The position numbers were made by a program, and so were the translations under genes. 64,000 nucleotides of DNA, taken from a candidate division WOR-3 bacterium (GTDB lineage Bacteria > Hydrothermota > Tepidihabitantia > B3-TA06). Under the pieces are notes generated by a model. That model was given only the letters and a program-made list of their open reading frames with translations. It ran no database searches and was not told the origin of the DNA. Within the stretch, counting starts at the first letter, position 1. Every line of letters starts with the position of its first letter. Positions 15,041-63,355 of the stretch are shown one piece after another. The stretch is from NCBI GenBank assembly GCA_965649265.1, contig CBFGKC010000006.1, forward strand, positions 114,975 through 178,974. Direction: 5' to 3'.

Positions 15041-15096
15041 GTGTTACGGGGGGGGGACGGGTGTTACGGGTGGGTGTTACGGGTGGCGTTACGGGG
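15041..15096 (-). repeat. C-rich decamer array (CCCGTAACAC on the gene strand), 4 copies, overlapping the rSAM stop codon
   Basis: Plus strand reads GTGTTACGGG at 15041, 15061 and 15074, and GCGTTACGGGG at 15087. Same motif arrays occur at 48002-48082 and 58790-58832. Confidence 0.8.
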
Positions 15097-16111: not shown

Positions 16112-16112
16112 G

Positions 16113-16688: not shown

Positions 16689-16717
16689 TGGTCAATATAC
16701 GGCTGATAGGGATGGTG

Positions 16718-17278
16718 TCAATCCTTTTCTTCCGTAGAGTCAGGGTCCGTCACGACAAGCATTAGTTGTTGCGTATACATGCCTGCCTGGGAGGTGTAGA
16801 AGGTCAGGTCCACCCATGTTGTTTCGGAGACAAGCCCTCCGATATAGAACCTCCCCTGAACGGCCTCAAGCGTGTCCGAAAAATCTCCGTCAACCGCATC
16901 GAGAGGCGTAAGAAGCGTGTCTGATGCCAGTTTTATCGTCGCGCCGGTAATGATGTTGCCTTCTATTCCCGGATCGTAAACCTTGGCCGTCGCCTTCACC
17001 GTTACCGTATCCGCGCCTTTTGTAGGATTCGGCGTAATAGCAGCCTCGGTGACTACCACGGGGTCAATTATGGCCATGTCGTAGCAGGTTGCTATGGGTG
17101 TCTCCGGCTGTGCCCTGAGCCAGCCTGCAACAGTCAGAACGAGACCTAAAACGAAGAGCTTGGTCCACCTCGCCGTCTTTTTAATAGTTCCCTCCTCCTC
17201 CCAGCTTGAAAGAACCGGAAGGAGTTTTGCTCCTATCCTCGTTATGAATGATGAAAGCGCGTTTCGAGTCTTAATCAT
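16718..17278 (-). CDS. Array paralog P2
   Basis: MIKTRNALSSFITRIGAKLLPVLSSWEEEG. ARWTKL plus hydrophobic helix ending WLRAQ. ATCYD. TPNPTKGADTVTVKATAKV. DGDFSDTLE. Tail DPDSTEEKD. Confidence 0.8.
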   Translation of the reverse strand: MIKTRNALSSFITRIGAKLLPVLSSWEEEGTIKKTARWTKLFVLGLVLTVAGWLRAQPETPIATCYDMAIIDPVVVTEAAITPNPTKGADTVTVKATAKVYDPGIEGNIITGATIKLASDTLLTPLDAVDGDFSDTLEAVQGRFYIGGLVSETTWVDLTFYTSQAGMYTQQLMLVVTDPDSTEEKD

Positions 17279-17307
17279 GTTTTACTGTACCTCACTTTTC
17301 CGGACTG

Positions 17308-17865
17308 TCAATCTTTTTCTGTCGAATCGGGTTCAGAAATCACAAGCTGCAGCCCTTCAACATTTATGCCTGCCTGCGGGGTGTAGAATGTGATGTAAAC
17401 CCGGGTGGTTTCGGGTCCAAGCCCGGTGACGCACAGACGGCCTTCAACTGTCTCGAGCGTGTCCGAAAACTTGCCGTCGACCGCACGGAGAGGGACAATA
17501 ACCGTATCGCCGCCAATTCTTGCATCCGCTCCGGAGATTATATTGCCTTCAAGTTTCGAATCGTAGACCCTTGCGGTCGCTCTCACCGTAACCGAGTCGG
17601 CGCCATTTGTGGGGTTAGGCGTAATAGCAGCCTCAGTGATTATTACCGGTTCAATGACGACCGGATCATAACAGGTCGCATACCCCCTGGTCTCTTGGGC
17701 CGAGAGCCAGCCTAGTAAGCCCAGGATGAAACCCAGAATGTAGATTTTTGCAAATCTCGCGAATCCCTTAAGAACCCCTTCCTCCTCCCACCTTGAGAGA
17801 AGCGGGAAGAGTTTTGCTCCAACATTGCTTACAAACGCCGCGAGCGAGCTGCGAGCTTTGGCCAT
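17308..17865 (-). CDS. Array paralog P3
   Basis: AAGGAGG RBS. MAKARSSLAAFVSNVGAKLFPLLSRWEEEG. ATCYDP. TPNPTNGADSVTVRATARV. DGKFSDTLE. Tail EPDSTEKD. Confidence 0.85.
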   Translation of the reverse strand: MAKARSSLAAFVSNVGAKLFPLLSRWEEEGVLKGFARFAKIYILGFILGLLGWLSAQETRGYATCYDPVVIEPVIITEAAITPNPTNGADSVTVRATARVYDSKLEGNIISGADARIGGDTVIVPLRAVDGKFSDTLETVEGRLCVTGLGPETTRVYITFYTPQAGINVEGLQLVISEPDSTEKD

Positions 17866-17929
17866 AAAATTCCTCCTTGACTGCGACTACTCCTGTTATA
17901 CAGTTGCAGGTGCAATAAATTCCCTTAAC

Positions 17930-18469
17930 CTATTCGGTTATCTCGATATCTGAGCTGTCTTCGATTACCTTGTTCTTGCTTGTAGATATTCTGACATGGA
18001 CTTTTGCGTTTGCGGTATCGATACCCCTGATGCTTAACTTCGCCGAGATTTCCTCGTATGAACCGTCAAAAGCACTATCCGCAGCCAGCATCTCCACCGT
18101 GTCGGAATTTGCACCTTTCCCGGTAATGAAACACTGTGCCGATTTTACATAATTGTCCTTGGAGCCTGGGATTATATTGGCTCTGGCTTTGACCATAACC
18201 GAGTCGGCTCCAGCCGTAGGATCAGGCAAAACCTCGATATTATGAATGGGGGGAGGTACAGGCTCGTAGCACGTGACCGGGCAGCAGGCGGTCGAGCCGG
18301 CCGCTCCGGAAAGACCTAATCCTGAAACGAGTGCACTCAGGAATGAAAGCTTCATCCACCTTGCAAGCTTGGGTAGTACCCTGCGTTCCTCGCATCTTGA
18401 GTAGAAGTCAAAAAGCGCAAAACCGGCTTTCCTGAGAATCTCGAAAACAATGTGTCTTGCCTGAGCCAT
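17930..18469 (-). CDS. Array paralog P4
   Basis: The track ORF extends to 18547. ATG 18469 (MAQARHIVFEILRKAGFALFDFYSRCEERRVLP) aligns with the other N-termini and removes the overlap with P5. VTCYEP. LPDPTAGADSVMVKA. Confidence 0.8.
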   Translation of the reverse strand: MAQARHIVFEILRKAGFALFDFYSRCEERRVLPKLARWMKLSFLSALVSGLGLSGAAGSTACCPVTCYEPVPPPIHNIEVLPDPTAGADSVMVKARANIIPGSKDNYVKSAQCFITGKGANSDTVEMLAADSAFDGSYEEISAKLSIRGIDTANAKVHVRISTSKNKVIEDSSDIEITE

Positions 18470-18476
18470 GATACTG

Positions 18477-19016
18477 CTATTCTGATTCCGTGATGTACAA
18501 ATCCACTGTCGTGTAATCTCGCTCCCCTTTATTGGAGGTGGCCTCAATGTTTACACTGCAGGTATCGCCTGCGGCAAGATTGCCTACGTATAATCGAGCT
18601 TCTACGTCTTTCATTCCGTATGGATCGGTTTTCGTGACAATCATCGTTATGGTGTCGTCATTAAGAACACATATCACCTTATCCACATAATCTTCTTCTA
18701 TGCTTACTCCATTGGGGACATTTGCGCTCGCTTCAACGGTTACTGAATCTGAGCCTGACGTCGGATTAGGGGTTATTGAGCAGGTTGCGATTTGAGGTTT
18801 CGGGTACTCCATCGGTGCGTAACACGTTATGCAGTTGAGCATGCTGGCCGCACTCAATGCGGTAATTCCTGTCACGAAGGCTCCGAGGAAGGTCGTTTTT
18901 ACCCACCTGGAAGCCCTTGGCAGTATCCCGCAATCCTCACAGTGGGAGAAGAAGTTGAAGAGTGATGTTCCCATTCTCCTCAAGGTTTCAAAGAAGAGGT
19001 AGCGGCTACTGGCCAT
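18477..19016 (-). CDS. Array paralog P5
   Basis: GGAGG RBS. MASSRYLFFETLRRMGTSLFNFFSHCEDCGILPRASRWVKTTFLGAFVTGITALSAASM. ITCYAP. TPNPTSGSDSVTVEA. Confidence 0.85.
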   Translation of the reverse strand: MASSRYLFFETLRRMGTSLFNFFSHCEDCGILPRASRWVKTTFLGAFVTGITALSAASMLNCITCYAPMEYPKPQIATCSITPNPTSGSDSVTVEASANVPNGVSIEEDYVDKVICVLNDDTITMIVTKTDPYGMKDVEARLYVGNLAAGDTCSVNIEATSNKGERDYTTVDLYITESE

Positions 19017-19031
19017 TGTGCCTCCGGTGAT

Positions 19032-19547
19032 TTATTCAGTTATCTCGAGGTCGATTGTTGTATCCGCTCGCTGGTCTTCATTGTCGTATTCTGTGATTTG
19101 TATGGTTACTGTATCGGGCTCGAGGTCTCCTATATACAACTTCGCGTTCACGGCATATTCATTCGTGTAGTCTCCAGGCTCTATCTTCATGACGGTGGTG
19201 TCATTCTCGAGGATACATATCACCTTTTTCAATTCAATCCCGTTATCGGCAATTGCCTTGGCGGAAACGCTAACAGTGTCGGCCCCTGCCGTAGGATTTG
19301 GTGCCACGGAGGCGTTTTCGATTCGAGGTGATTCAATTGGCAAGTAGCAGCCGGTGGGGATACAGTTGATCATGCTGGCCGCGCTCAACGCGGTAATTCC
19401 TGTCACGAAGGCTCCGAGGAAGGTCGTTTTTACCCACCTGGAAGCCCTTGGCAGTACCCCGCATTCCTCACAGCGAGAGAAGAAGTTAAAGAGTGAGGTG
19501 CCTATCCTCCTCAAGGATTCAAAGAAAAAAAACTTTGTTCTAGCCAT
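19032..19547 (-). CDS. Array paralog P6
   Basis: ATG 19547 after AAAGGAGG (track ORF extends to 19580). MARTKFFFFESLRRIGTSLFNFFSRCEECGVLPRASRWVKTTFLGAFVTGITALSAASM. TGCYLP. APNPTAGADTVSVSA. Confidence 0.85.
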   Translation of the reverse strand: MARTKFFFFESLRRIGTSLFNFFSRCEECGVLPRASRWVKTTFLGAFVTGITALSAASMINCIPTGCYLPIESPRIENASVAPNPTAGADTVSVSAKAIADNGIELKKVICILENDTTVMKIEPGDYTNEYAVNAKLYIGDLEPDTVTIQITEYDNEDQRADTTIDLEITE

Positions 19548-19569
19548 GGTTCCTCCTTTCACTGTATTA

Positions 19570-19597
19570 AATATAATCAACTTGCTCGGATTGTCAA
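19570..19597 (-). promoter_or_regulatory. Internal sigma70-type promoter TTGACA-N16-TATATT inside the array (upstream of P6)
   Basis: TTGACA 19597-19592, TATATT 19575-19570, in the 82-nt P7-P6 gap. Confidence 0.45.
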
Positions 19598-19629
19598 TCC
19601 ATGAAAATCACCTGAAATCCTGGCAGGTG

Positions 19630-20157
19630 TTATTTATCAGTAACGCGGAGAACGGTCGAGCCTATGCCCCAGCCTGAGGTTTTTGAATCGACTTTTACAA
19701 AGACCTGAGTGCTGTCCGTTTTGATTTTCTTCACGTATATGCGCCCGATGAGTTCCTCATTATTCTCGTCGAATGCGCCGTCCCTCGCTATCATCCGGAT
19801 GGTGTCTCCATCGACTATGCACTGGGCTGAGGCTATTATTTCGAGATCGCTTGCGTTTTCAAGTCTGGCTTTGGCGGTAACGGTCACCGAGTCGGCGCCT
19901 TTCGTCGGGTTAGGCTTGACTACTATCTCCGAAACCCTGGGATATACGGCCACAGGTTCGTAGCAGGTCACGAGCCCCTGATCCAGCGGAGGTTTTTTGG
20001 CGCATGCCGCAATGATGGTCAGCCACGCTCCAGCAAGCGCGAGCTTGAGCCAGCGTGATATCCTTGGCAGAGCGCTTCGTTCCTCACACCCGGTCAGAAT
20101 GGAGAACAGTGCCGAGCCTGTTCTCCTCAAAAACCTTGACAGTAACTCTCGCTTCAT
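19630..20157 (-). CDS. Array paralog P7, lipobox variant
   Basis: MKRELLSRFLRRTGSALFSILTGCEERSALPRISRWLKL. Lipobox-like IAAC. VTCYEP. KPNPTKGADSVTVTA. ATGA overlap with the P8 stop. Confidence 0.8.
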   Translation of the reverse strand: MKRELLSRFLRRTGSALFSILTGCEERSALPRISRWLKLALAGAWLTIIAACAKKPPLDQGLVTCYEPVAVYPRVSEIVVKPNPTKGADSVTVTAKARLENASDLEIIASAQCIVDGDTIRMIARDGAFDENNEELIGRIYVKKIKTDSTQVFVKVDSKTSGWGIGSTVLRVTDK

Positions 20158-20726
20158 AACGAGTCCTTTTCAGTGATAAATAGCGGTAATGAAACCAGTG
20201 CTTCTTCACCCTTGGAAGTGGCCGCGTGCACGTAGACGAAGGTGGTCCCGGGTTTAAGACCCGCGACGCTGATGCGTGCCTCAATCATCTCGACGGTATC
20301 CGAGAAGCGGCCGTCCACAGGGTACATCCGGATTTTCCTTGACGTATCAATGGCCATTACGAGCCAAGCATCCGACACGTAATTGTTCTCAAGGCCAGGT
20401 TCCAGCACCCTTGCGGTGCCCGTTATCTTGACAGTGTGCACGCCCCTTGTCGGGTTCGGGCTTGCCTGAACTACTGAGATTTCGGGATCCATCCTTCTCA
20501 TCATGTAACATGTGTGGACAGGACCGTCGCCGTCTCCTCCTGGTCCGGGTCTTGCCTTTTTCCCGCACGAGGCTATCAGGGCGACAACGAGCCCGAGTAG
20601 CGAAACCTTCAAAAAGCGCGCGGTCTTTGAAAATATTGGAGTATCCTGGCATCTCGATAGCGCATTAAACACCAGATTACCTGCATTTCTGAGAACTGCA
20701 ATCAAGCTCTTTCTCATCTTTGCCAT
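20154..20726 (-). CDS. Array paralog P8, lipobox variant
   Basis: MAKMRKSLIAVLRNAGNLVFNALSRCQD. Lipobox-like IASC, then Gly/Pro/Asp linker. HTCYM. SPNPTRGVHTVKITG. DGRFSDTVE. Confidence 0.8.
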   Translation of the reverse strand: MAKMRKSLIAVLRNAGNLVFNALSRCQDTPIFSKTARFLKVSLLGLVVALIASCGKKARPGPGGDGDGPVHTCYMMRRMDPEISVVQASPNPTRGVHTVKITGTARVLEPGLENNYVSDAWLVMAIDTSRKIRMYPVDGRFSDTVEMIEARISVAGLKPGTTFVYVHAATSKGEEALVSLPLFITEKDSL

Positions 20727-20745
20727 TCTGCCTCTCCTATCTCGT

Positions 20746-21288
20746 TTAATCTGGTTCAGTAATCACCAGTTCTAAAGATTCAATTTCAATTTGACCGGAA
20801 GAATTTTCTACCTCTAAGTATATCCATGTCGTTTCCGGCTCAAGGTCTCCAACGTAAAGTCGGCCGACTATTCTCTCCGAAGCGGCGTCGAATTTCCCGT
20901 CAATCGCCCGCATGGGGTAATATATTGTATCTCCATCCATTCTCATGCGGGCTGAGCTTATCGTGCTTTCGCCGCTGTAGTGATCGCTAATCTTTGCCGT
21001 GGCCTTGACGGTTACCGAATCGGCGCCCCTTGTAGGGTTAGGCCTTACGGAAAGTTTGGATAGTTCTATGAGGGGAGGGGGGGCGGGCTTGTAGCACATT
21101 ATGACGTCTTCCTTTGCTTCGAGCGAGAGAGCGCTCACGAGTGCCACGAAAAATCCGAGGAATGTGAGCTTCAACCATCTTGCCGCCCCGGGGAGGATGC
21201 GGCGTTCCTCGAATCCGGAAAACGTTCCGAAAAGCCTTCCGCCAATCCTTGCAAAAAAGTCTGCCAGGCGTTTTCTGAGTTCAGGCAT
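20746..21288 (-). CDS. Array paralog P9
   Basis: AAGGAGGA RBS embedded in the P10 tail codons. MPELRKRLADFFARIGGRLFGTFSGFEERRILPGAARWLKL. IMCYKP. RPNPTRGADSVTVKATAKI. DGKFDAASE. Confidence 0.85.
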   Translation of the reverse strand: MPELRKRLADFFARIGGRLFGTFSGFEERRILPGAARWLKLTFLGFFVALVSALSLEAKEDVIMCYKPAPPPLIELSKLSVRPNPTRGADSVTVKATAKISDHYSGESTISSARMRMDGDTIYYPMRAIDGKFDAASERIVGRLYVGDLEPETTWIYLEVENSSGQIEIESLELVITEPD

Positions 21289-21289
21289 A

Positions 21290-21859
21290 TCAATCCTCCT
21301 TATTCTCGTTGCTGTCCGCTTCCGGTGCGGTGATGATTAATTGCCTCCAGGTGCTTTCCGCGTTGCCTGAGTTTGTCCTCACCACTATGTAAATCCAGGT
21401 GGTCTCCGGCTTGTGATCCCCGACGTAGAGACGGCCTTCGACTGTTTCAAGGGTATCGCCGAACTTACCGTCAACCGCTTTCATCGGATATAAAAGGGTA
21501 TCTCCGGTAAGCTGCATAATTGCTTCGGAAACAGCGGTGTCACCTGAGCAATAATATGCAGATTCCAATTTTGCGGTTGCCTTGACTGTAACGGTGTCTT
21601 TTCCTGCAGTGGGGTTCGGTGTTGCCGAGACATCGAAGATACTTAAGTGAGGTTCCTCAATAGGCACGTAGCACATGATGATATCGTCGTCCGCCTTGAG
21701 CGCTGGCGCGCCCAGCAGGGTTACCAGCAATCCCAGAACCGAAAGCTTTAGCCATCTTGCCGGTCTGCGTAGGATACCGCGTTCCTCCAATCCGGACAGT
21801 ATCCCGAATAAGGAGCCGCCTATCCGTGAAGAGATGCGGGCCAGTAAGCCTTTTGTCAT
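21290..21859 (-). CDS. Array paralog P10
   Basis: The ATG directly follows the P11 stop (TAGATG). MTKGLLARISSRIGGSLFGILSGLEERGILRRPARWLKL. IMCYVP. TPNPTAGKDTVTVKATAKL. DGKFGDTLE. Tail EADSNENKED. Confidence 0.85.
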   Translation of the reverse strand: MTKGLLARISSRIGGSLFGILSGLEERGILRRPARWLKLSVLGLLVTLLGAPALKADDDIIMCYVPIEEPHLSIFDVSATPNPTAGKDTVTVKATAKLESAYYCSGDTAVSEAIMQLTGDTLLYPMKAVDGKFGDTLETVEGRLYVGDHKPETTWIYIVVRTNSGNAESTWRQLIITAPEADSNENKED

Positions 21860-23145: not shown

Positions 23146-23223
23146 ATGGGAAAGAACAGGGAGTTTCCAATGAAAAAAAAAAGGTTTGTGATAGTTCCGA
23201 GTCATTTTACAGGGAGAGATTGA
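23146..23223 (+). CDS. Candidate leaderless 25-aa upstream ORF (MGKNREFPMKKKRFVIVPSHFTGRD)
   Basis: ATG 5 nt after the TATAAT. Its stop TGA (23221-23223) lies 1 nt before ATG 23225 of the next gene. No homology evidence. Confidence 0.3.
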   Translation: MGKNREFPMKKKRFVIVPSHFTGRD

Positions 23224-23224
23224 G

Positions 23225-24547
23225 ATGCATCCATTTCTGGTTTTCTGTTGTTGTTTGATTTCATCTTTGACTTGGAATAGACATTATGATTTTCGGTTTA
23301 GTGACCACTGTAGCGCGCTTGTGCCGGTAGAGGACGGTTACGTGATTACGGGTAACACTATGCGGTATCTATTCGTGCAGAAGGTCGATACTCTGGGAAA
23401 TCAAGTCGGTTACAAAGAGTGGTATAAGGCCGAAGGTTATGACATAGAGAGAATGTCTGATGGTTATATTATTCTTGCGTACAAAGACGAATCTCCCAGG
23501 CACGGGATTTGGTTGGTAAGAACAGATAGCGATTTTGACACACTTTGGAGTAGAAGCTATGGATATAATAATGGAATTATGGCAAAATCTCACTCATTTG
23601 ATTTAACAGATGACAGTGGTTTAGTGATGGTCGGTGAGTGCGGCACGGGTCTTATTGTCTTTAAAACCGATAGTCTTGGTGATAGCTCCTGGGTAAAAAA
23701 ATATTTTCAGTCTGTCTCGATGCGCGCTGGGAATTTTATTGAAGAAACATCTGATCAAGGTTTTATTGTTACGGGAGTTTGTGAGGAACGTTTTTTTGCA
23801 CTGAAATTGGATGAGAATGGGGATTCCTTATGGTGTAAGAAATATTTTGAGGAAAAAACAGGTGAAGGTCTTTGTATAAGAGAAACCTCCGACAAAGGCT
23901 TTATAGTATTGGCTAGGATAAGGTATGGTAGTTCGGATTCCTTGCTTCTCATCAAGACGGATTCTTTTGGAAACGCTTTGTGGGTGAGAAAATTCAATTC
24001 GATGTCTCATTGGACTAGAACATGTTATATTGAGGTTCTGGATGATGGTTATGTTATGATTTCAGGGTCACAAGAAGGTCCATTAGTCAGGAAATTTGAC
24101 GAGTCTGGGAATGTCCTTTGGACAAAGACCTACAATCGTAATTTCGGTTATTTTTCCGGATTTGAAGGCACATGTATTCATTACACATCGGATAAAGGTT
24201 TTATTATTGGCACCGCTTTGGATATATCTCCATACGGATCAGACCTCTGGCTGGTGAAAACCGACAGCCTAGGAAACACGGTTCCTCTTGAATCCGTGAT
24301 AGAGCCAACGGAGACTGCCGTTAGCGAAGTTCATCTGAGTGTTTTGAATTCAGCTGTTGCATATTCCTTACCTGCTGGCGAGCGTTGTTTGTTGAAAATC
24401 TATGATGTTAGTGGAGTATTGAAAAAAGGAGAAATTGTTTGTGGCCGCGGAGAGATGCGACTAAAAGAATTCCCTGTAGGGGTTTATTTCGCTGAGTTAC
24501 AGTTCATGCGAAGTGCTGAAATCAAAAAGGTATTAGTTTTTCCCTAG
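23225..24547 (+). CDS. Secreted repeat protein (same ~50-aa repeat family as 2652 and 11732) with T9SS-type C-terminal domain
   Basis: Repeats such as IEETSDQGFIVTG...LKLDENGDSLW and IRETSDKGFIVLA...LLIKTDSFGNALW. C-terminus LLKIYDVSGVL...GVYFAELQFMRSAEIKKVLVFP. Confidence 0.7.
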   Translation: MHPFLVFCCCLISSLTWNRHYDFRFSDHCSALVPVEDGYVITGNTMRYLFVQKVDTLGNQVGYKEWYKAEGYDIERMSDGYIILAYKDESPRHGIWLVRTDSDFDTLWSRSYGYNNGIMAKSHSFDLTDDSGLVMVGECGTGLIVFKTDSLGDSSWVKKYFQSVSMRAGNFIEETSDQGFIVTGVCEERFFALKLDENGDSLWCKKYFEEKTGEGLCIRETSDKGFIVLARIRYGSSDSLLLIKTDSFGNALWVRKFNSMSHWTRTCYIEVLDDGYVMISGSQEGPLVRKFDESGNVLWTKTYNRNFGYFSGFEGTCIHYTSDKGFIIGTALDISPYGSDLWLVKTDSLGNTVPLESVIEPTETAVSEVHLSVLNSAVAYSLPAGERCLLKIYDVSGVLKKGEIVCGRGEMRLKEFPVGVYFAELQFMRSAEIKKVLVFP

Positions 24548-24576
24548 TCGAAAATAGTTTTCGTTGACTAACTCTT

Positions 24577-25017
24577 TTGTTCAAGTACAATCCCCGCGTG
24601 AAGCAGCTCTTATCGGACTGGCGGGTGCTTTCGGCGATCGCGATACTCGGATGGGGGACCTGGGGCATACTCTCAAAGATTGCCCTGAAACAGGTTGACT
24701 GGCGGGTCATGATGCTGATTACGTCCGTAGCCGCCCTTCCTCTGGCTTTCATACTCGGGATTCCGAATTTCGACTGGAAGTTTAACCGCTACATCCTTCT
24801 CGCTTTTTTTGCAGGAATCGGAGCCGAGGTCGCGACGCTCTCCTTCAACCGCGCGATTCAAAAGGGCGGACCCGCGAACGTCGTGGTCCCACTCACCTCA
24901 CAGTACGTGCTCGTCATAGTGCTTTTTTCGACCATTTTCCTAAAAGAGCCTATAACGTGGCAGAGAATCGTCGGCATCGTTGCCGCGCTCATAGCAATTG
25001 TGATGCTTTCGCTGTGA
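24577..25017 (+). CDS. Small DMT/EamA-like membrane transporter (single EamA-type domain)
   Basis: 146 aa with 4-5 hydrophobic helices. FFAGIGAEVATLSFNRAIQKGGPANVVVPLTSQYVLVIVLFSTIFLKEPITWQRIVG resembles an EamA domain. TTG start, or the downstream GTG. Confidence 0.55.
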   Translation: MFKYNPRVKQLLSDWRVLSAIAILGWGTWGILSKIALKQVDWRVMMLITSVAALPLAFILGIPNFDWKFNRYILLAFFAGIGAEVATLSFNRAIQKGGPANVVVPLTSQYVLVIVLFSTIFLKEPITWQRIVGIVAALIAIVMLSL

Positions 25018-36591: not shown

Positions 36592-37350
36592 TCATGGTGT
36601 ACTCTGCCGCTTTTCTTTTGCTTGTTGAAGAGACTTTTTCACCAGCTCAGTTGCTCTGTACAGCGATTCGAAGGTGCCCGCATCCGTCCACCAGCCCGAA
36701 AGCTTTGCCCAGCGCATCTGGCCCCAGGAGATATAGGTGTTGTTCACGTCCGTTATCTCGAGTTCATTTCTTCCTGATGGCGAGAGCCCTTTAACGATCT
36801 CGAACACACGTTTGTCGTACATGTAGATTCCGGTCACAGCCAGGTTGGATTCCGGTTTCTTCGGCTTCTCCACAATCCTGGCGACGTGTGCACCTTCCAC
36901 GGTCGCAACGCCGAAGCGCTGGGCGTCCTTCACTTCCTTCAGAAGAATCATCGCGCCGGTTCCGGCGGCCTCGAACTTCTTGATGTAGGGGAGGAGGGGG
37001 GCGGAAAAAATGTTGTCTCCGAGAATCACCACAACCGGCTGGCCCTCCGAGAAATCCTCGGCGAGCGATAGCGCTTCCGCGATGCCGCCGTGACCGTCCT
37101 GGTAGGTGTAGTGCAGACCCTTGATGCCGAACTTCCTTCCGTTTCCCAAAAGCCTCAAAAAGTCACCCGCGAATTCGCCGCCCGTGACCAAAAGTATCTC
37201 CTCGATTCCGGCCTCGACTAATTTCTCAATAGGATAAAGCACCATCGGTTTGTCGTAGACAGGCAAAAGGTGTTTGTTGGTCACCTCAGTCAGCGGCGCG
37301 AGCCTGGTGCCCATGCCGCCCGCAAGTATCACGCCTTTCTTCAATTTCAT
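36592..37350 (-). CDS. Sugar-1-phosphate nucleotidyltransferase (glucose-1-phosphate thymidylyl/uridylyltransferase-like)
   Basis: KGVILAGGMGTRLAPLTEVTNKHLLPVYDKPMVLYPIEKL. 252 aa. Confidence 0.8.
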   Translation of the reverse strand: MKLKKGVILAGGMGTRLAPLTEVTNKHLLPVYDKPMVLYPIEKLVEAGIEEILLVTGGEFAGDFLRLLGNGRKFGIKGLHYTYQDGHGGIAEALSLAEDFSEGQPVVVILGDNIFSAPLLPYIKKFEAAGTGAMILLKEVKDAQRFGVATVEGAHVARIVEKPKKPESNLAVTGIYMYDKRVFEIVKGLSPSGRNELEITDVNNTYISWGQMRWAKLSGWWTDAGTFESLYRATELVKKSLQQAKEKRQSTP

Positions 37351-37355
37351 TCGCT

Positions 37356-37384
37356 ATCTTACAGCAGGAGAGGGGAGGAGTCAA
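37356..37384 (-). promoter_or_regulatory. sigma70-type promoter TTGACT-N17-TAAGAT abutting the start codon (leaderless)
   Basis: TTGACT 37384-37379, TAAGAT 37361-37356. ATG 37350 is 5 nt after the -10. Confidence 0.5.
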
Positions 37385-37409: not shown

Positions 37410-37438
37410 TTGACACTATAAGACGGTTTTCTTATAAT
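37410..37438 (+). promoter_or_regulatory. Perfect-consensus sigma70 promoter TTGACA-N17-TATAAT
   Basis: TTGACA 37410-37415, TATAAT 37433-37438. AAAGGAGG RBS before ATG 37472. Confidence 0.6.
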
Positions 37439-37471
37439 GCAAACAGAGGATACAAGCCAAAGGAGGAAAAG

Positions 37472-38683
37472 ATGAAGCGTTGCTTTCTCGCAGTTGTGTT
37501 CGCAGTGCTTTTGTTCGTTTATTGCTCTCTGCCGAAGTATCACGGCGAGCCTCTCTGGACTTTTGAGGCCAAAGGGAGGATATGTTCCTCGGCTCTCGGC
37601 CAGGATGGAACTATTTATTTTACCATGAATTACAAAGATACCGCAAGTCTTTATGCGCTGAACCCCGACGGCGACATTAAATGGAAGTACACGTCAATTA
37701 GCACAAAGGATACTTTGAGGAGCTTTGATTTCCTGTCGATAAGAAGCGACGGGACAATCTATGTCGGCGGCGAGAGTGTTCTTTTCGCGCTGAATCCGGA
37801 CGGAAGTCTCTTATGGAGTTATGAAGATGTTTGTCAGGTCGGCGGAATGCTAATCGGGACTGAAGGGGCGTTGTACATTCTCGACAGCGGTATTCTCATC
37901 GCATTAAACGAGAGTGGAGAAAAGCTATGGGAATCTGATTTGGACATTATTCTTCTGGGATGCATTTCAGCCGATGGATCGGTATATGTTTATGAGAGCA
38001 GCCTTAGTTCTCCGATTGAAAATGCTGTTTCCTTGTATCCAGACGGCACTTTAAAGTGGCGGCGTGATTGCACAATTGGATTTCCTTGTCCCTATCCTAG
38101 TCCAGCTGTTGGCGAGGACGGAACAATCTACGATGCACAGATGTATCTCATGGCCATTTCGGACAATGGGGATTGCTTATGGAATTACAAGGATTGTTTT
38201 AATCCGTCAATAGGCTCAGATGAAAGCATATATGCCGTTGGGTATTACAACAATGCCAAAAAGAACAAAGTTATAGCGTTTGACGATTCGGGTAAAGTGG
38301 CATGGGAATACAAGATTCCGGGGGAAAAAAGAACAGTGGGTTATATTTCGCCTGTGGTTGGTGCAGACGGGACGATCTATGTGGGTGAATGTTTTTACTT
38401 CTTTTGGGGTTGGACTCCTGAAGAAGACTACTATCTTTACGCGCTGGATAATACCGGCAGGCTTTTGTGGACATATAGTATTGACGGGTTTCTCTCGAAT
38501 CCTCCTCTGCTTGCCCAGGACGGGACGCTCTACTTATGCACGAATTCTTCACTCGAAAGCGACGGTGCTAATTCAAAAGTAAAAATAACCGCCCTTCAAA
38601 CCGAGTCAATGGGTCTTGCCTCCTCCTCCTGGCCGCGGGCCGGGCACGACAACCAGAACACGGGCCGCGCGAGTGGGCATTAG
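37472..38683 (+). CDS. PQQ-like beta-propeller repeat protein (BamB-like fold), probable lipoprotein
   Basis: Repeats DGTIYF...LYALNPDGDIKWKY, DGTIYVGG...LFALNPDGSLLWSY and similar. N-terminal MKRCFLAVVFAVLLFVYC. C-terminal SSSWPRAGHDNQNTGRA. Confidence 0.7.
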   Translation: MKRCFLAVVFAVLLFVYCSLPKYHGEPLWTFEAKGRICSSALGQDGTIYFTMNYKDTASLYALNPDGDIKWKYTSISTKDTLRSFDFLSIRSDGTIYVGGESVLFALNPDGSLLWSYEDVCQVGGMLIGTEGALYILDSGILIALNESGEKLWESDLDIILLGCISADGSVYVYESSLSSPIENAVSLYPDGTLKWRRDCTIGFPCPYPSPAVGEDGTIYDAQMYLMAISDNGDCLWNYKDCFNPSIGSDESIYAVGYYNNAKKNKVIAFDDSGKVAWEYKIPGEKRTVGYISPVVGADGTIYVGECFYFFWGWTPEEDYYLYALDNTGRLLWTYSIDGFLSNPPLLAQDGTLYLCTNSSLESDGANSKVKITALQTESMGLASSSWPRAGHDNQNTGRASGH

Positions 38684-38766
38684 GAAAGTACTTGACAGTG
38701 TAGAATTTCCTTTTATTATTTATATGTGGTCAAACCCTGCGAGGCGGGAAAATCTAGGAGGATAAC

Positions 38767-40018: not shown

Positions 40019-40047
40019 TTGACAGATCGCGAAGCGCACCTTATAAT
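40019..40047 (+). promoter_or_regulatory. Perfect-consensus sigma70 promoter TTGACA-N17-TATAAT abutting the start codon (leaderless)
   Basis: TTGACA 40019-40024, TATAAT 40042-40047. ATG 40053 is 5 nt after the -10. No room for an SD. Confidence 0.6.
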
Positions 40048-40052
40048 GAAGG

Positions 40053-41186
40053 ATGAAGCGTTTGCTTATCCTTCTGGTCGCGGCGGCGTTGCTTGCAGGT
40101 TGCGCGTCCCAGTCGGTAAAAAAAGGTAAAACCGGGCTCGAACTGCTCTATATCGCGGACGTACCGGCCGACGATGCCGGGTGTTCGGCGCTCTACTCTA
40201 CAATCAAGGGGTTCGAAAATCCCCTCGTCGTAGTTGATGATCCAACGTTCTCCACTATCTCCGATCTTGCCTGGTGGGAGGGGCAAAGGGAGCTTTTTCT
40301 CCTCGACTCTCTGGGTGTGGGACTTTTTTTCCTTCCTTCCTCCTGGATGCTTCTCGGTGCGGACAAGCTCAAGGAACTCTCGAACGAGGCCGATTTCTTC
40401 ATGCCAGCGATGAATCTTGCCGACAACTCGCTGCGCTACATTTTGCCTCGCTACATGATACGCAGGCAGGGTTCGTATCGTCTGGCCTTCTCTGCGGCGG
40501 TCAGACCGGAGAAACAAGCGTTTCTCATTAAAGGAGAGAATCTTCTTAATGTGGATTCGCTTCTGCCCGTGACCGCTACTTACCTGGCCATGCAGTCCGA
40601 TTTCTTCTTCTTTTTCAATGATGATTCGACCGGAAAGGTTTCATCGGGGATCAACTCCATTCCGCGTGGTGCCGGTTCTCGTCAGCTTTCCTTAAGCTTC
40701 CGCAGCACGACGGAATTCAAGCTTAACCAGAAGCCCTTGAGACTTGCGGCCGCGTCTGCGACCAATCCATGCGCGCTGTGGCAGCAGAAGGCTGATTCCA
40801 TCGACTTGGAGCTTCTGGGCGCGAGTTCTGAAGGCGTTTCCACGGACTCGCTGCGGCAGCTGGCAGCGAAGGCTCTTGGCTCAAGCGAGAGCGTAATGGT
40901 TTATCTCGGCGATGGGTTCATAAAAGATTCGCTGCCCGCCGGTCAAATAACATTCGGCAAGATGCGCAGAGTTCTCGCCCCCGAGATTTTCGTCGCAGTT
41001 CCAAGACAGGATTTCGTCAACGCTTTCCCGCGAGAGGGGGAGGGGGTATCTCAAAAAATAAAGGAAGTGATTTTACCTTCATCTCTTTTCATCGCCGATG
41101 AGGCTTTAGGAAGCACTCACGCGAAGCCGACAGGATTGACTTCGGCTTCGCTGGTTCGTAAGATGTTTTCAAAGGAGGAGAAGTGA
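40053..41186 (+). CDS. Lipoprotein of unknown function
   Basis: MKRLLILLVAAALLAGC lipobox. 377 aa. Confidence 0.6.
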   Translation: MKRLLILLVAAALLAGCASQSVKKGKTGLELLYIADVPADDAGCSALYSTIKGFENPLVVVDDPTFSTISDLAWWEGQRELFLLDSLGVGLFFLPSSWMLLGADKLKELSNEADFFMPAMNLADNSLRYILPRYMIRRQGSYRLAFSAAVRPEKQAFLIKGENLLNVDSLLPVTATYLAMQSDFFFFFNDDSTGKVSSGINSIPRGAGSRQLSLSFRSTTEFKLNQKPLRLAAASATNPCALWQQKADSIDLELLGASSEGVSTDSLRQLAAKALGSSESVMVYLGDGFIKDSLPAGQITFGKMRRVLAPEIFVAVPRQDFVNAFPREGEGVSQKIKEVILPSSLFIADEALGSTHAKPTGLTSASLVRKMFSKEEK

Positions 41187-46702: not shown

Positions 46703-46730
46703 TTGACCTCGTTTCCAAAGCCCGTATAAT
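46703..46730 (+). promoter_or_regulatory. sigma70-type promoter TTGACC-N16-TATAAT close to the start codon (near-leaderless)
   Basis: TTGACC 46703-46708, TATAAT 46725-46730. ATG 46739 is 8 nt after the -10. Confidence 0.5.
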
Positions 46731-46738
46731 CGAGCGTT

Positions 46739-47998
46739 ATGGAGCACATCCCACTCCTTGCGAAGCTCGGAATTATCTTCGGCGTCATCATCGTCGTCAT
46801 GGTATTCAGGCTGCCCACGTTCGTGCCAATCCTTTTGGGCGCTGTCGTCACCGGCGTCCTCTTCACCATGCCCGCGCTCGATATCGGAAGAACATTCCTC
46901 GACAGCGTAATAGACTTCTACACCATTGACACCATCCTCATCGTCTGCTTCATCGAGATTCTCGGCAAGATGATGAAGGAGCGCGGCATCCTCTCGCGAT
47001 TCGCCGGCGGCGCCGACTACCTTCTGCGGGGCTCTCGCGTGAGCGTGGTCACGATCCCCATGTTCGTCGGCCTCCTGCCAATGCCGGGCGGCGCCTACTT
47101 CACCGCACCCATGACCGAGGAGCAGATAAAACCCTACGGAATAAAGCCCGGGCTCGCGGTCTACATCAACTACTGGTTCCGGCACGTGTGGGAGTACTTC
47201 TGGCCGCTTTACCCCGGCCTCATCGTGGGCTTCGCCATCCTCAAGGACGTCACCGTCGGCTCCGTCATCATCCACCAGTCGTTCGTGACACTGCTCGCGA
47301 TTGCGGCGGGCGCCGTCATCATCTTTGCCTTCGTCAAGCGCAGGGTGGTGCGGCCGGAGCGTCTTGCGGGCAAGGGTCGTTCTTCCACAAAAGACGTGCT
47401 CTACGGCGCGTTCCCTCTACTCATCATCGTCGTCCTCATCGTGGTCACGCAGGCGCTTGGCTCCATAGTCAAGATTCCCGTTTCCTCCGTCATGCTGATC
47501 GTGCTGGTCTCTTCGTGGATATTCTACAAGGTTCCATTGAAAGGTTCAGGCAAGCTCATTCTTTCCGCGCTCGACTGGCGCGTGATCTCGCTCATGGCGT
47601 CGGTCATGTTCTTCAAGTACATGCTCGACCGTTCGTCCGCGCTGACCGGGCTCGGCCCGATGCTTGCAGGGGCCCCCTCCTCCCTCATCATCGCCATGAT
47701 AATGTTTCTTCCCTTCGTGGTCGGACTCCTCGTGGGACTCAACCAGGCGTACGTTGCCACGACGTTTCCCCTGCTCGCGCCCTTCATCGGCCATGACCCC
47801 GGACTCGTCATGCTCGCGTACGCGTTCGGGTTCTTCGGCGTGATGCTCTCGCCCTCGCACCTCTGCCTTGCCTTATCGCGCGAGTACTTCAAGGCGAGCT
47901 GGGGCTCGGTGTACAAGTGGTTGGTGCCCTCAGTGATCGCGGTCGCCGTCGTGACGTTCGCCGTGTGGTTCTTCCTGTTCCCGCATCCTAAACTATAG
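46739..47998 (+). CDS. Multi-pass integral membrane protein (permease-like, possibly DUF401-type)
   Basis: 419 aa with about 11-12 hydrophobic helices. The family call is a weak recollection only. Confidence 0.6.
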   Translation: MEHIPLLAKLGIIFGVIIVVMVFRLPTFVPILLGAVVTGVLFTMPALDIGRTFLDSVIDFYTIDTILIVCFIEILGKMMKERGILSRFAGGADYLLRGSRVSVVTIPMFVGLLPMPGGAYFTAPMTEEQIKPYGIKPGLAVYINYWFRHVWEYFWPLYPGLIVGFAILKDVTVGSVIIHQSFVTLLAIAAGAVIIFAFVKRRVVRPERLAGKGRSSTKDVLYGAFPLLIIVVLIVVTQALGSIVKIPVSSVMLIVLVSSWIFYKVPLKGSGKLILSALDWRVISLMASVMFFKYMLDRSSALTGLGPMLAGAPSSLIIAMIMFLPFVVGLLVGLNQAYVATTFPLLAPFIGHDPGLVMLAYAFGFFGVMLSPSHLCLALSREYFKASWGSVYKWLVPSVIAVAVVTFAVWFFLFPHPKL

Positions 47999-51845: not shown

Positions 51846-52170
51846 GCCCTCCTCAGACCCCCTCAGACCCTCCTCAGACCCTCCTCAGACTATCCTCAGA
51901 CTATCCTCAGACTATTGGGGGCTCAACACCTTGCAGAATTCTATTCTGCGCATGCGCCTCCGGCGCTAGCCCTTTGGATAAGTAGAAATGAAATGGCGGA
52001 AGCGCAGCTTGCGCCCAGCGCCTCCGGCGCTCCTCCTTAGATCGGTAATAGTGAAATCGCAGAAACCCCATGGGCTTCTGCGCATGCGCCTCCGGCGCTA
52101 GCCCTTTGGATAAGTAGAAATGAAATGGCGGAAGCGCAGCTTGCGCCCAGCGCCTCCGGCGCTAGCCCTG
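51846..52170. repeat. Composite repeat island: 6 copies of CCTCAGA (10-11 bp period) followed by an 86-bp GC-hairpin unit duplicated at 132-bp spacing
   Basis: CCTCAGA at 51851, 51861, 51872, 51883, 51894 and 51905. An identical 86-mer occurs at 51946-52031 and 52078-52163. Related to 14790-14855. Confidence 0.9.
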
Positions 52171-55684: not shown

Positions 55685-55712
55685 TTGACACTGCGTATGC
55701 AATACATATAAT
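55685..55712 (+). promoter_or_regulatory. Consensus sigma70 promoter TTGACA-N16-TATAAT for the V-ATPase genes (near-leaderless)
   Basis: TTGACA 55685-55690, TATAAT 55707-55712. ATG 55722 is 9 nt after the -10. No SD. Confidence 0.6.
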
Positions 55713-55721
55713 CTTTTTAAG

Positions 55722-56708
55722 ATGGTCGGCTATACCCCCTCTGAAGACCCGCGTTACGCATTTGTCATCGGTCGCGTAAGATCGCGGGAAGCTCGTATGT
55801 TGAATCGCCAGCAGTTCGACAGGCTGCTCGAGGCTCGTACCGAGAGTCAGATGCTTTCAAATCTAGCGGATACACCCTACTCGGAAACTCGCGCCGAAGA
55901 CATTGAAACCATGCTTATGCGTGCCGCGTCAGAGGAGGAGGCGTTCTTCTACCGGTATCTTGAAAATGAAAGGATACTTGACTTTTTTAAGGCACCTGAT
56001 AGAGCCTCTAATCTTAAATTTGCGTTGAGACGCAAGTACCGGGGGGAGGTGGAGGATTCACTTTTTATTTCTGACGCTCCTTCCTCAATGGAGGTGTTAG
56101 CCAGGTATCTTGAAGGAGAGTCCGTTATAGTCCCTGACTGGATGCGCGCTGCGGCCGGGAAAGTGGTCGCGGCGAATATCGAAAAAATCGATCCATCGAG
56201 CATAGATGTGATTGTGGATTCGGCTCTGATTATGCATCAACATACCCTTTCAGAGGGGTCTTCTTTTCTTGAGAAGCTGCTGTCGTTAAGGGTCGATTTT
56301 GCCAACCTTCTTGCTTTTTTACGAATAAAGGTTTCAGGGGAGGAGGGGGATGAATTCTCGAAAACGTTTCTTCCTTACGGTACGATTTCAATCGCTCGTT
56401 TCAACTCATGGTCGCAGCTGGGTTGGGATTCCTTGCCGCGGGAGGTAAAAAAAACAGAGATTTTCAAAAAACTAGAAGAAGGATTAAAGGAACTGCCGGA
56501 TAGTTTTCTTTTACTCGAACGTGAAATCAAGGAGGAGGAACTCTCATACCTTTTGTCGACAAGACGATTGGTTTTTGGATATGAACCCCTGGTGGGTTAC
56601 AGTCTTCTCAAGAGAGAAGAGCGCCGCAACATTCAAAGGGTAGCTACAGGTTTGCGGTACGGTCTTGAAAAAGAAACAATAAGGAAGTCCATTGCCTGGT
56701 TTGACTGA
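55722..56708 (+). CDS. atpC: V/A-type ATP synthase subunit C (V0 d-like)
   Basis: N-terminal ...RYAFVIGRVRSREARMLNRQQFDRLLEA... is typical of A/V-type subunit C. 328 aa. Operon context. Confidence 0.75.
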   Translation: MVGYTPSEDPRYAFVIGRVRSREARMLNRQQFDRLLEARTESQMLSNLADTPYSETRAEDIETMLMRAASEEEAFFYRYLENERILDFFKAPDRASNLKFALRRKYRGEVEDSLFISDAPSSMEVLARYLEGESVIVPDWMRAAAGKVVAANIEKIDPSSIDVIVDSALIMHQHTLSEGSSFLEKLLSLRVDFANLLAFLRIKVSGEEGDEFSKTFLPYGTISIARFNSWSQLGWDSLPREVKKTEIFKKLEEGLKELPDSFLLLEREIKEEELSYLLSTRRLVFGYEPLVGYSLLKREERRNIQRVATGLRYGLEKETIRKSIAWFD

Positions 56709-61326: not shown

Positions 61327-62596
61327 GGGCACGCGCGACGTGCTCCCACTGGAGATGATGGCTCGCAAAGAGCTTGAGGAAATCGCTTTCGCGCATTTTT
61401 CGAAAGCGGGTATCCTGCCTGTTCTTACTCCCACATTTGAAGCCTACGAGATGTATGAACGCTCAACGGGCGAATCCTCCGATATAGTTATAAAAGAGAT
61501 GTACAAGTTCAGGGATATGGGTGACCGTGAATTGGCCCTGCGACCAGAGGGAACACCATCCATCATCCGCGCGGTCCTCGAGAATAATATCAAATTGCCG
61601 GCGCGTCTCTGGTATATGATGCCCATGTTCAGGCAGGATAAGCCGCAAAAAGGCCGCTATCGTGAGCATACCCAGATCGGCGTCGAAATAATCGGAGAAG
61701 CCGAGCCTGAGACCGATGTCGAACTCATAAAACTCGGTTTCGATCTTTTCACCAATATCGGTATGGATGGTCTCTATCTCGAACTCAACTCGATCGGCTG
61801 CAGGGAATGCAGAACTTTGTATATGAAAGAATTGAACTCCTTCCTTTCCCTGCATCGCGATAAACTTTGCTCGGATTGTAAGGTTCGCATGGAACGTAAC
61901 GCCCTGAGGGTTTTCGACTGCAAGGTGCCGAATTGTCAGGAGATTTTAAAAGATGCGCCTTCTCAATCGTCGTATCTTTGCCCGGAATGCTCCGTCCATT
62001 TCTCCAGGGTCAAGGAAGGACTTGTATACTTCAATATCCCATTCAAGGAGAACCCGAGGCTGGTGCGTGGACTTGACTACTATTCACGAACGGTCATTGA
62101 ATTCAAATCCTCGTCCCTTGGCGCACAGGATACGGTGTGCGGAGGAGGTCGTTATGATTACCTCATGGAAGAGATGGGCGGCCCGCCAACTCCCGGTGTA
62201 GGATTCGCATTCGGAGTCGAGCGTGCTCTTCTTGCCTCAAAAGGGGAGGAGGTGCTTGAATATTCAGGAGCATCAATTCCGCTTGTTCTGCTTCCTCTCG
62301 GAGAGAAAGCACGGTCTGCCTCTTGCGGGTACGTTTTTAAACTCAGGGAATCAGGTATAACGTCTCTCGTCGAGTACCGGTCAGGGAACCTTTCAAAACA
62401 GCTCAAGCGAGCTTCCTCTCGGAATGCCTTAAGGGTTCTCATTATCGGCGATGACGAGTTGGCCTCGGGCAAACTAATTTTGAGAGACATGAAAACGGGA
62501 GAGCAAAGGGAAGTAACCTTGGAGGAGCTTTGCATGATACAAGAACTTAAGACACCCGCTTTTTTGTTGACAAGCGGTGATAATTCAATAACATAA
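61307..62596 (+). CDS. hisS: Histidine--tRNA ligase
   Basis: GTG 61307 gives MRFQRVKGTRDVLP... (track starts at 61271). ...ALRPEGTPSIIRAV..., ...YMMPMFRQDKPQKGRYREHTQ..., ...GGGRYD... class II motifs. Confidence 0.9.
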   Translation: MRFQRVKGTRDVLPLEMMARKELEEIAFAHFSKAGILPVLTPTFEAYEMYERSTGESSDIVIKEMYKFRDMGDRELALRPEGTPSIIRAVLENNIKLPARLWYMMPMFRQDKPQKGRYREHTQIGVEIIGEAEPETDVELIKLGFDLFTNIGMDGLYLELNSIGCRECRTLYMKELNSFLSLHRDKLCSDCKVRMERNALRVFDCKVPNCQEILKDAPSQSSYLCPECSVHFSRVKEGLVYFNIPFKENPRLVRGLDYYSRTVIEFKSSSLGAQDTVCGGGRYDYLMEEMGGPPTPGVGFAFGVERALLASKGEEVLEYSGASIPLVLLPLGEKARSASCGYVFKLRESGITSLVEYRSGNLSKQLKRASSRNALRVLIIGDDELASGKLILRDMKTGEQREVTLEELCMIQELKTPAFLLTSGDNSIT

Positions 62597-62599
62597 AGA

Positions 62600-63355
62600 A
62601 TGCGAAGGATTGCCATAGTCAATCAAAAGGGCGGAGTCGGTAAGACTACCACGGCAATAAACCTTTCGGCGGCCCTGGCAGTAGCGGAGAAGCGGGTATT
62701 GCTTATTGATGTTGATGCCCAGGCGAACGCCACTTCGGGACTCGGTCTTGAAAATCGCGAATCCAACCACTCCACATACGAGATTTTCATTAATCCTTCC
62801 AACATCAAGGAGACTATCCGCGCGACCTCCGTTAAATATCTGGATGCGGTGCCTGCATCCCTGGATCTTGCAGGTCTTGAGATTGAACTCATCGATACGG
62901 AGGGCAGGGAGTCTAGACTTCGACAGGCAATGTCTTACATTGATTCGTACGATTACGTTATAATGGACGCCCCCCCCTCCCTCGGTCTCCTGACGCTTAA
63001 CGCTCTTGTTGCCGCAGACAGTGTTCTCATTCCGGTTCAGTGCGAATACTATTCCCTTGAGGGCATAAGCAAGCTCACTGATACTCTTAACAGGGTAAGG
63101 AGCTTTCTTAATCCGTCCCTCGAAATTTTCGGAGTCCTCCTGACCATGTATGACCCAAGAACGAATCTGGCCGATCAGGTTGCGGAGGAGATTAGAAAAC
63201 ATTTCCCTGAAAAAGTTTTCAGGGCGATGATTCCGCGAAACGTGCGTCTTGCCGAAGCGCCCAGTTTCGGCCAGACCATTCTTCATTACGACATCAATTC
63301 CCGCGGCGCCCAGGCTTACCTTGAGCTTGCGAGCGAGGTGATGGCTCGTGGCTAG
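62600..63355 (+). CDS. parA: Chromosome partitioning ATPase ParA/Soj
   Basis: MRRIAIVNQKGGVGKTTTAINLSAALA (deviant Walker A). ...YVIMDAPPSLG... 251 aa. Confidence 0.9.
   Translation: MRRIAIVNQKGGVGKTTTAINLSAALAVAEKRVLLIDVDAQANATSGLGLENRESNHSTYEIFINPSNIKETIRATSVKYLDAVPASLDLAGLEIELIDTEGRESRLRQAMSYIDSYDYVIMDAPPSLGLLTLNALVAADSVLIPVQCEYYSLEGISKLTDTLNRVRSFLNPSLEIFGVLLTMYDPRTNLADQVAEEIRKHFPEKVFRAMIPRNVRLAEAPSFGQTILHYDINSRGAQAYLELASEVMARG

Follow-up and report, generated by a model that had tools for sequence, protein, structure and literature searches.

Leaderless translation initiation, in which the ribosome together with the initiator tRNA binds a 5′-terminal AUG or GUG, is known from Actinobacteria, Deinococcus-Thermus and archaea. 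In leaderless genes, TA-like boxes are found about 10–12 bp upstream of the start; such 'TA-led' genes were described by Zheng et al. 2011 and occur in one of 37 Bacteroidetes/Chlorobi genomes (PMC3160421). The −10 (Pribnow) box of Mycobacterium tuberculosis lies 6–8 nucleotides (nt) from the start. The genomes assigned by GeneMarkS-2 to 'group C' contain 25–50% leaderless operons, and 89.9% of the surveyed genomes of the Fibrobacteres–Chlorobi–Bacteroidetes (FCB) group belong to 'group B', which does not rely on Shine–Dalgarno (SD) sites (PMC6028130). In Deinococcus radiodurans, a −10 box located 6–7 bp upstream of open reading frames (ORFs) was demonstrated experimentally to be a promoter, and correct spacing is needed (PMC12340547). 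Here we analyse a 64-kb stretch of contig CBFGKC010000006.1 (the window), assigned to a candidate division WOR-3 bacterium, in which the start codons of eight genes directly follow sigma-70-type promoter sequences. Leaderless or near-leaderless (0–3 nt) mRNAs are the best explanation of this arrangement, and a probable one.

The preliminary description of the window had reported four start codons placed directly behind a near-consensus −10 hexamer, at 40053, 37350 (minus strand), 46739 and 55722. The sequence reads exactly as stated there, and all four sites are also recovered by a promoter scan. Our own scan of the window for TTGACA/TATAAT matches of at least 10/12 gave four more cases, the genes starting at 62600, 24598, 17278 and 16688. 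The eight genes are listed below, followed by a leadered control.

40053–41186, plus strand: lipoprotein gene, 377 amino acids (aa); TTGACA-N17-TATAAT from 40019 to 40047, gaagg (5 nt), ATG 40053; promoter-to-start region 40019–40055.
36592–37350, minus strand: glucose-1-phosphate thymidylyltransferase-like (NTP_transferase) gene; TTGACT-N17-TAAGAT from 37384 to 37356, agcga (5 nt), ATG 37350; promoter-to-start region 37348–37384.
46739–47998, plus strand: DUF401/TIGR00529 membrane protein gene; TTGACC-N16-TATAAT from 46703 to 46730, 8 nt, ATG 46739; promoter-to-start region 46703–46741.
55722–56708, plus strand: V-ATPase subunit C gene; TTGACA-N16-TATAAT from 55685 to 55712, 9 nt, ATG 55722; promoter-to-start region 55685–55724.
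62600–63355, plus strand: ParA gene; TTGACA-N16-TAACAT, aaaga (5 nt), ATG 62600; region 62567–62602.
24598–25017, plus strand: EamA-family gene; TTGACT-N16-TACAAT, ccccgc (6 nt), GTG 24598; region 24564–24600.
ATG 17278, minus strand: paralog of a tandem array, 186 aa; TTGACA-N16-TACAGT, aaaac (5 nt); region 17276–17311.
GTG 16688, minus strand: paralog of 191 aa; TTGACA-N16-TATATT, gacca (5 nt); region 16686–16721.
37410–37474, plus strand: leadered control; perfect TTGACA-N17-TATAAT, 33-nt leader, AGGAGG 5 nt before ATG 37472.

The promoter unit of 16688 is a duplicate of the unit starting at 17311 and is not an independent case. The V-ATPase subunit C gene is the first gene of the V-ATPase operon. 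The promoter of ParA is located within the 3′ end of hisS. The gaps between the −10 hexamer and the start codon measure 5, 5, 5, 5, 5, 6, 8 and 9 nt in the eight genes. Two classes can be distinguished, with gaps of 5 nt (40053, 37350, 62600, 17278, 16688) and of 8–9 nt (46739, 55722). In the short-gap class the distance from the −35 hexamer to the ATG is fixed at 33–34 nt even when the spacer varies between 16 and 17 nt. The control promoter at 37410 is of the same type as that of its leaderless neighbour, 60 bp away, yet it drives an SD-led gene.

The predicted start codon is the first or only plausible start in all eight genes. At the first four sites each ATG is the first possible start of its ORF and is preceded by an in-frame stop 1–11 codons upstream, so that no upstream extension is possible. 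For three of the four, this stop falls within the promoter or adjoins it; the lipoprotein gene has an in-frame TGA at 40047–40049. The product of the lipoprotein gene begins with MKRLLILLVAAALLAGC, a standard lipoprotein signal with lipobox. The protein profiles of the matched genes start at residues 1–16:

NTP_transferase: position 1 of the Pfam NTP_transferase profile at residue 5, and position 1 of NCBIfam PRK15480 at residue 1.
DUF401: position 4 of the DUF401/TIGR00529 profile at residue 9.
V-ATPase subunit C: position 2 of the AC39 profile at residue 16.
ParA: position 1 of the AAA_31 profile at residue 1.

Nine tandem paralogs (16113–21859, minus strand) align from an invariant M1. Seven of them are preceded by AGGAGG and two, 17278 and 16688, by an abutting promoter; the array can be regarded as a natural control for start positions and for both initiation modes. 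The N-termini of orthologs agree with the starts in the window. No SD site fits between promoter and start in any of the eight genes, which agrees with the earlier claim that the four sites leave no room for one.

The abutting arrangement is far more frequent in the window than expected by chance. Perfect TTGACA-N16-18-TATAAT promoters occur five times in the 64 kb, compared with none in 100 dinucleotide-preserving shuffles (about 0.02 expected). Of 30 distinct matches of at least 10/12, six end 5–9 nt short of the first start codon in an ORF of 90 aa or more, where 0.15 would be expected (Poisson P = 1.6 × 10⁻⁸). ATG positions after strong promoter matches show peaks at 5 and 8 nt and none at 10–15 nt. 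Among 53 curated starts, the sequence TANNNT is present 4–9 nt upstream of 9 of the 20 SD-less starts and of 1 of the 33 SD-bearing starts (Fisher P = 3 × 10⁻⁴). SD sites and TANNNT boxes close to the start hardly ever occur together. GGAGG or AGGAG is present 4–7 nt upstream of about 20 starts, and the view of the preliminary description that both initiation modes coexist in the window holds. The 53 window genes display the pattern used by GeneMarkS-2 to define group C, namely a −10 box before some first genes and an SD site before the rest. Approximately 8 of the 53 genes (about 15%) are candidates for leaderless expression. Expressed per operon head, the share is between roughly one quarter and one third, the latter being counted over transcription-unit heads with a recognisable promoter. 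Two further start candidates, 2652 and 7207, possess only a TANNNT box with a poor −35. The candidate 2652 was rejected, as it is better explained by GGAGGTGA followed by GTG 2658.

The organism belongs to the WOR-3/TA06 neighbourhood and not to Bacteroidota. The homolog search returned only four homologs of the lipoprotein, with identities of 72, 54, 41 and 39%; the 41% homolog is from candidate division TA06 bacterium B3_TA06. Among the homologs of V-ATPase subunit C, nearly all of 327–328 aa, are a sequence of 100% identity on an NCBI contig of 186,882 bp and one of 61% identity in a candidate division WOR-3 bacterium. WOR-3 is named Caldifarciminota in the current NCBI taxonomy, and an affiliation of the lineage with the FCB neighbourhood has been reported. 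Syntenic loci of relatives were collected from three sources: lipoprotein homologs (loci L081–L083), V-ATPase subunit C homologs (L084–L095), and a metagenome scan with DNA polymerase I (L097, L098, L100 and L114, 72–74% identity). The proteins of the compared relatives are 41–84% identical to those of the window. A first metagenome scan with V-ATPase subunit C found no relatives, and exact look-ups of the window lipoprotein and of P0005 returned no record. A scan of a genome collection with the NTP_transferase protein gave 80 hits of 58–68% identity from many phyla; these hits carried no taxonomic or synteny signal and were used solely as control sequence. Rfam and tRNA scans of the window gave no match.

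The −35 hexamer, the −10 hexamer and their distance to the ATG are kept in two to seven lineages per gene, while divergence is seen in the spacer, in the gap and ahead of the −35. The conserved arrangements are as follows:

V-ATPase subunit C: six distinct lineages, TTGACA-N16-TATAAT-N8/9-ATG.
Lipoprotein: five lineages (including L081, L082, L083 and L094), TTGACA-N16/17-TATAAT-N5/6-ATG.
NTP_transferase: six lineages, TTGACT-N16/17-TA[AT][GTC]AT-N5-ATG.
ParA: seven loci, TTGACA-N16-TAACAT-N5-ATG.
DUF401: two lineages, promoter and 8-nt gap identical in L087.
EamA: two lineages, in L098 TTGACG-N17-TAGAAT-N5-ATG.

The EamA protein shares its N-terminus with the L098 ortholog (VKQLLSDWR and MKQFFSDWR, respectively). 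The DUF401 gene of L083 and L094 is located inside an operon and has no promoter. The distance between the −10 and the start codon is gene-specific, and the two classes of 5–6 and 8–9 nt are kept across lineages. The abutting layout was also found in further families of the relatives, one encoding an 88-aa protein (9-nt gap, four loci) and one a 383/385-aa protein (5–6-nt gap). The conserved geometry is a phylogenetic footprint and shows selection on the distance that separates promoter and start codon.

To compare this layout with other genomes, matches of at least 10/12 that abut the ATG of an ORF of at least 80 aa were counted by one pipeline in every set:

Window: 5 of 30 matches abutting.
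Relatives (199 kb): 27 of 87 abutting.
80 loci from other phyla (1.38 Mb): 3 of 136 abutting.
59 more distant metagenome loci: 25 of 269 abutting.

The relatives show about 14-fold more abutment per promoter match than the control genomes (Fisher P = 7 × 10⁻¹⁰); since orthologous loci are not independent samples, these figures reflect lineage-wide conservation and not a genome-wide rate. The more distant metagenome loci (L101–L160, with DNA polymerase I at most 51% identical) are a separate observation. Their 25 abutting matches among 269, compared with 3 of 136 in the controls, indicate that distant uncultured lineages of the same environments may also use leaderless genes.

We infer the position of the transcription start and the ribosomal mechanism from the arrangement of these sequences. 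A housekeeping sigma-70-type RNA polymerase would read the full-consensus −35/−10 promoter, whose −10 hexamer ends 5–9 nt before the start codon and would set the transcription start a few bases downstream. With gaps of 5–6 nt, transcription would begin at the A of the ATG, at position 6–7 after the hexamer, which is the sole start that preserves the AUG. With gaps of 8–9 nt, a purine at position 7 would give a leader of 1–3 nt rather than a strictly leaderless mRNA. In the six distinct V-ATPase promoters, position 7 is A in four, G in L084 and C in L094. Since there is no SD site and no room for one, translation would have to take the leaderless route, the ribosome initiating on a 5′-terminal AUG or GUG. 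Operon-internal genes and many first genes would use a strong AGGAGG instead, so the genome would run both modes. The claim of the preliminary description that leaderless initiation is in routine use is supported by the apparently genuine starts, the lack of an SD alternative, the conserved geometry and the roughly 14-fold enrichment. A cultured WOR-3 isolate exists (PMC12285271), and the leaderless prediction is therefore directly testable.

Several points weigh against leaderless expression of all these genes. The commonest gap of 5 nt puts the A of the start codon at position 6, one nearer than the usual mode of 7. A start at position 6 after the −10 is within the known range; a polymerase starting at position 7–8 would cut off the AUG of the genes with 5-nt gaps. 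The predicted 5′ ends fold alike in leaderless and SD-led genes: the unpaired probability of the start codon is 0.72 versus 0.73, and the folding energies do not differ, so that folding does not discriminate between the two modes. The orthologous loci are not independent genome samples and originate from two syntenic regions. Finally, ParA and the two paralogs are located 3–30 nt behind a gene on the same strand, and they may be translated from polycistronic read-through transcripts also or instead.

The last point leads to an alternative that concerns ParA 62600 and the paralogs 17278 and 16688 only. These genes could be expressed mainly by read-through with termination–reinitiation, the promoter motifs being secondary or incidental. 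Only 3 nt separate the stop codon of hisS (62594–62596) from the ParA ATG. In the array, each of the two −35 hexamers contains the stop of the paralog upstream, about 30 nt ahead of the start that follows; in the case of 17278 this stop is a TGA. The −10 hexamer of ParA, TAACAT, has only 4/6 consensus bases, and 17278 has a weak GAGGT 10 nt upstream. No SD site was found at 16688. The ParA motif and its 5-nt gap are nevertheless kept in all seven loci, among them L090 and L092, whose −10 is placed outside hisS, and L094, which has another gap sequence. Furthermore, the seven other paralogs carry AGGAGG, whereas these two have none and show a 10–11/12 promoter match instead. We regard read-through as the main route for these three genes as rather unlikely, though a real possibility.

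Two further readings would modify the leaderless model, and taken jointly they are improbable. According to the first, the polymerase habitually starts at position 6. The distance between promoter and ATG would then be tuned gene by gene, with a start one base closer than the Escherichia coli mode. The 5–6-nt class would be strictly leaderless and the 8–9-nt class would have a leader of 1–3 nt, perhaps with different translation efficiencies. According to the second, leaderless short ORFs open leadered mRNAs. Thirteen of the 30 strong promoter matches in the window have an ATG 4–9 nt after the −10 (background 8%, P = 2 × 10⁻⁷), and at five of them the ATG begins an ORF of 80 codons or more. 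Eight of the 25 strong promoters without an abutting long ORF still have an ATG at this distance (P = 0.002). One of the eight is an in-frame internal ATG of the ARPP-1 gene with a remainder of 79 codons, and seven open ORFs of 1–25 codons at leadered promoters. The following short ORFs have their ATG 4–8 nt after strong −10 boxes of leadered genes:

23146–23223: short ORF.
38724–38765: short ORF.
7288–7256, minus strand: short ORF.
2581–2586: short ORF.
32953–32900, minus strand: short ORF.
11613–11578, minus strand: short ORF.

Two of the short ORFs stop 1 nt before the main ATG, across its SD site (TGA-g-ATG 23225 and TAA-c-ATG 38767). If the second reading holds, 23146–23223 and 38724–38765 would couple or gate the translation of the downstream secreted proteins. 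In the relatives, an ATG of this kind is found at 5 of 60 promoters, which equals background. The TA06 ortholog of the 38767 gene (L083) has the promoter and no ATG near the transcription start. In the nearest homolog of the 23225 gene (L096) the ATG is shifted, lying 10–14 nt after the −10 and not 5 nt. A search for homologs of the 23225 protein yielded a large paralog family of type IX secretion system (T9SS) cargo with only one relative of 43% identity. Shell and co-workers reportedly described in 2015 leadered mycobacterial transcripts that carry leaderless short ORFs at the 5′ end. The 8 of 25 promoters of the window resemble this situation; unlike it, the feature was not seen in the relatives and is not conserved at two comparable promoters. 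The leaderless short ORFs would represent an unproven lead of low probability.

Two observations were made at these sites. The short ORF of 25 codons in the 5′ leader of the T9SS-cargo-like gene 23225–24547 contains a run of 10 A's (23173–23182), which could be a slippage-prone tract. The ARPP-1 (PF20208) gene contains the promoter-like sequence TTGGCA-N18-TATAGT at 50375–50346 on the minus strand, with the in-frame ATG 7 nt downstream (to 50336). This site is base-for-base conserved in L087 (8473). The sequence may act as an internal promoter that yields a C-terminal product of 79–80 aa, or its conservation may simply be that of coding sequence. The site was left uncounted, as coding constraint accounts for its conservation equally well.

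The start-adjacent TATAAT-like box could also be an AT-rich, non-SD ribosome-binding or enhancer element on leadered mRNAs, similar to that of group B genomes. The lineage is reportedly near the FCB group, where group B prevails among the surveyed genomes (PMC6028130), and the upstream genes could provide read-through transcripts for ParA and the paralogs. T9SS-type cargo, which was noted in the preliminary description, is indeed encoded in the window: FlgD_ig and Por_Secre_tail matches are present, and the homologs are named T9SS sorting-domain proteins. The cargo and the reported FCB affiliation are likenesses to Bacteroidota. However, every box has a conserved TTGACA-like partner, a −35 at 16–17 nt, which is irrelevant to the ribosome and diagnostic of sigma-70. 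The identical promoter type drives leadered SD genes, as from 37410 to 37472, and SD sites are strongly used in the window. Bacteroidota use sigma-ABfr promoters (−33 TTTG / −7 TAnnTTTG) and the non-SD initiation of group B, whereas TTGACA/TATAAT and a strong AGGAGG are found here. A search of the window for TTTG-N19-21-TAnnTTTG gave 0 matches, with 0.32 expected. This, together with the five perfect TTGACA/TATAAT promoters, agrees with the earlier statement that the promoters are canonical and not of the Bacteroidota type. For D. radiodurans the same question has been resolved in favour of promoter function (PMC12340547). A non-SD ribosome-binding element is on these grounds very unlikely.

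The possibility that the true starts are internal downstream codons with SD sites, the promoters merely giving short leaders, had been raised in the preliminary description. When codons 1–40 of the eight genes were searched for in-frame starts preceded by a motif resembling an SD site, two candidates only were left, TTG codon 4 of the lipoprotein gene and TTG codon 34 of ParA. In the lipoprotein gene, GAAGGA (40048–40053) lies 7–8 nt before the TTG, with AAGGA 8 nt upstream, and the public call for the closest ortholog (P0001, L081 243–252) begins at this internal TTG. The codon is not conserved: in L082, L083 and L094 codon 4 is not a start, the gap reads gcctt, tgcgc or cggaag, yet the ATG persists at its distance from the −10. 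A start at the TTG would also cost the lipoprotein signal peptide its Lys-Arg n-region. The ParA codon 34 is preceded by GGAG, and a start there would remove the Walker A motif. Internal starts would also truncate the profile-matched N-termini. We consider internal starts highly unlikely. The idea that promoter-like sequences lie next to the starts by chance, as hits to a loose consensus, draws on the scan at 9/12 or better, where 28 sites compare with 16.4 ± 4.1 in shuffles and many weak hits are noise, and is refuted by P values of about 10⁻⁸ to 10⁻¹⁰ together with the conservation in orthologs.

The predicted leaderless genes of the window can be compared with those of the described systems. 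Leaderless genes are a familiar feature of Actinobacteria and Deinococcus-Thermus; they are new for this lineage, where they would constitute a mild variant. Similar to these groups, a TANNNT box lies a few nt before an AUG or GUG that lacks an SD site, and the layout is limited to the first genes of transcription units, internal genes being SD-led. Counted over operon heads, their share of about one quarter to one third is within the 25–50% reported for group C. In contrast to the leaderless promoters of Deinococcus and mycobacteria, which are essentially −10-only, the promoters of the window also have a near-perfect −35 TTGACA. The gaps cluster at 5–6 and 8–9 nt, whereas those of known leaderless genes measure 6–8 nt. 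The genome has about 50% GC, unlike the high-GC leaderless Actinobacteria and Deinococcus-Thermus, and the lineage is a WOR-3/TA06-like candidate phylum. The searchable library of papers contained none that combines 'leaderless' and 'WOR-3'.

Regular leaderless initiation would reach a candidate phylum whose FCB neighbours, reportedly mostly Bacteroidota, generally have neither SD sites nor canonical promoters. The result leaves the present understanding of how translation is initiated unchanged. Gene callers expecting a ribosome-binding site misplace starts in this lineage. Besides the lipoprotein ortholog P0001, the public call for ParA in L094 (15960–15995) takes as its start the TTG in the −35 hexamer of the gene, 33 nt ahead of the conserved ATG. 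Leaderless-aware models are advised for WOR-3/TA06-type genomes. For synthetic biology, the window supplies well-defined near-consensus promoters of fixed geometry.

The array to which 17278 and 16688 belong lies within 15089–21859 on the minus strand and comprises nine or ten tandem paralogs of about 175–205 aa with no Pfam or NCBIfam match. The paralogs share an invariant Cys-Tyr, a PNPT-G motif and an N-terminal hydrophobic segment. The array is directly followed by a radical SAM/SPASM gene (15089–16111), which resembles peptide and cofactor maturases. The paralogs may represent multiple substrates for one maturase. The TonB_C-like gene and the first SBBP gene are divergent, and the intergenic region that separates them contains two tandem-repeat arrays:

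51847–51912: 11-nt unit CCCTCCTCAGA, 6.1 copies.
51954–52169: 64-nt unit, 3.3 copies.

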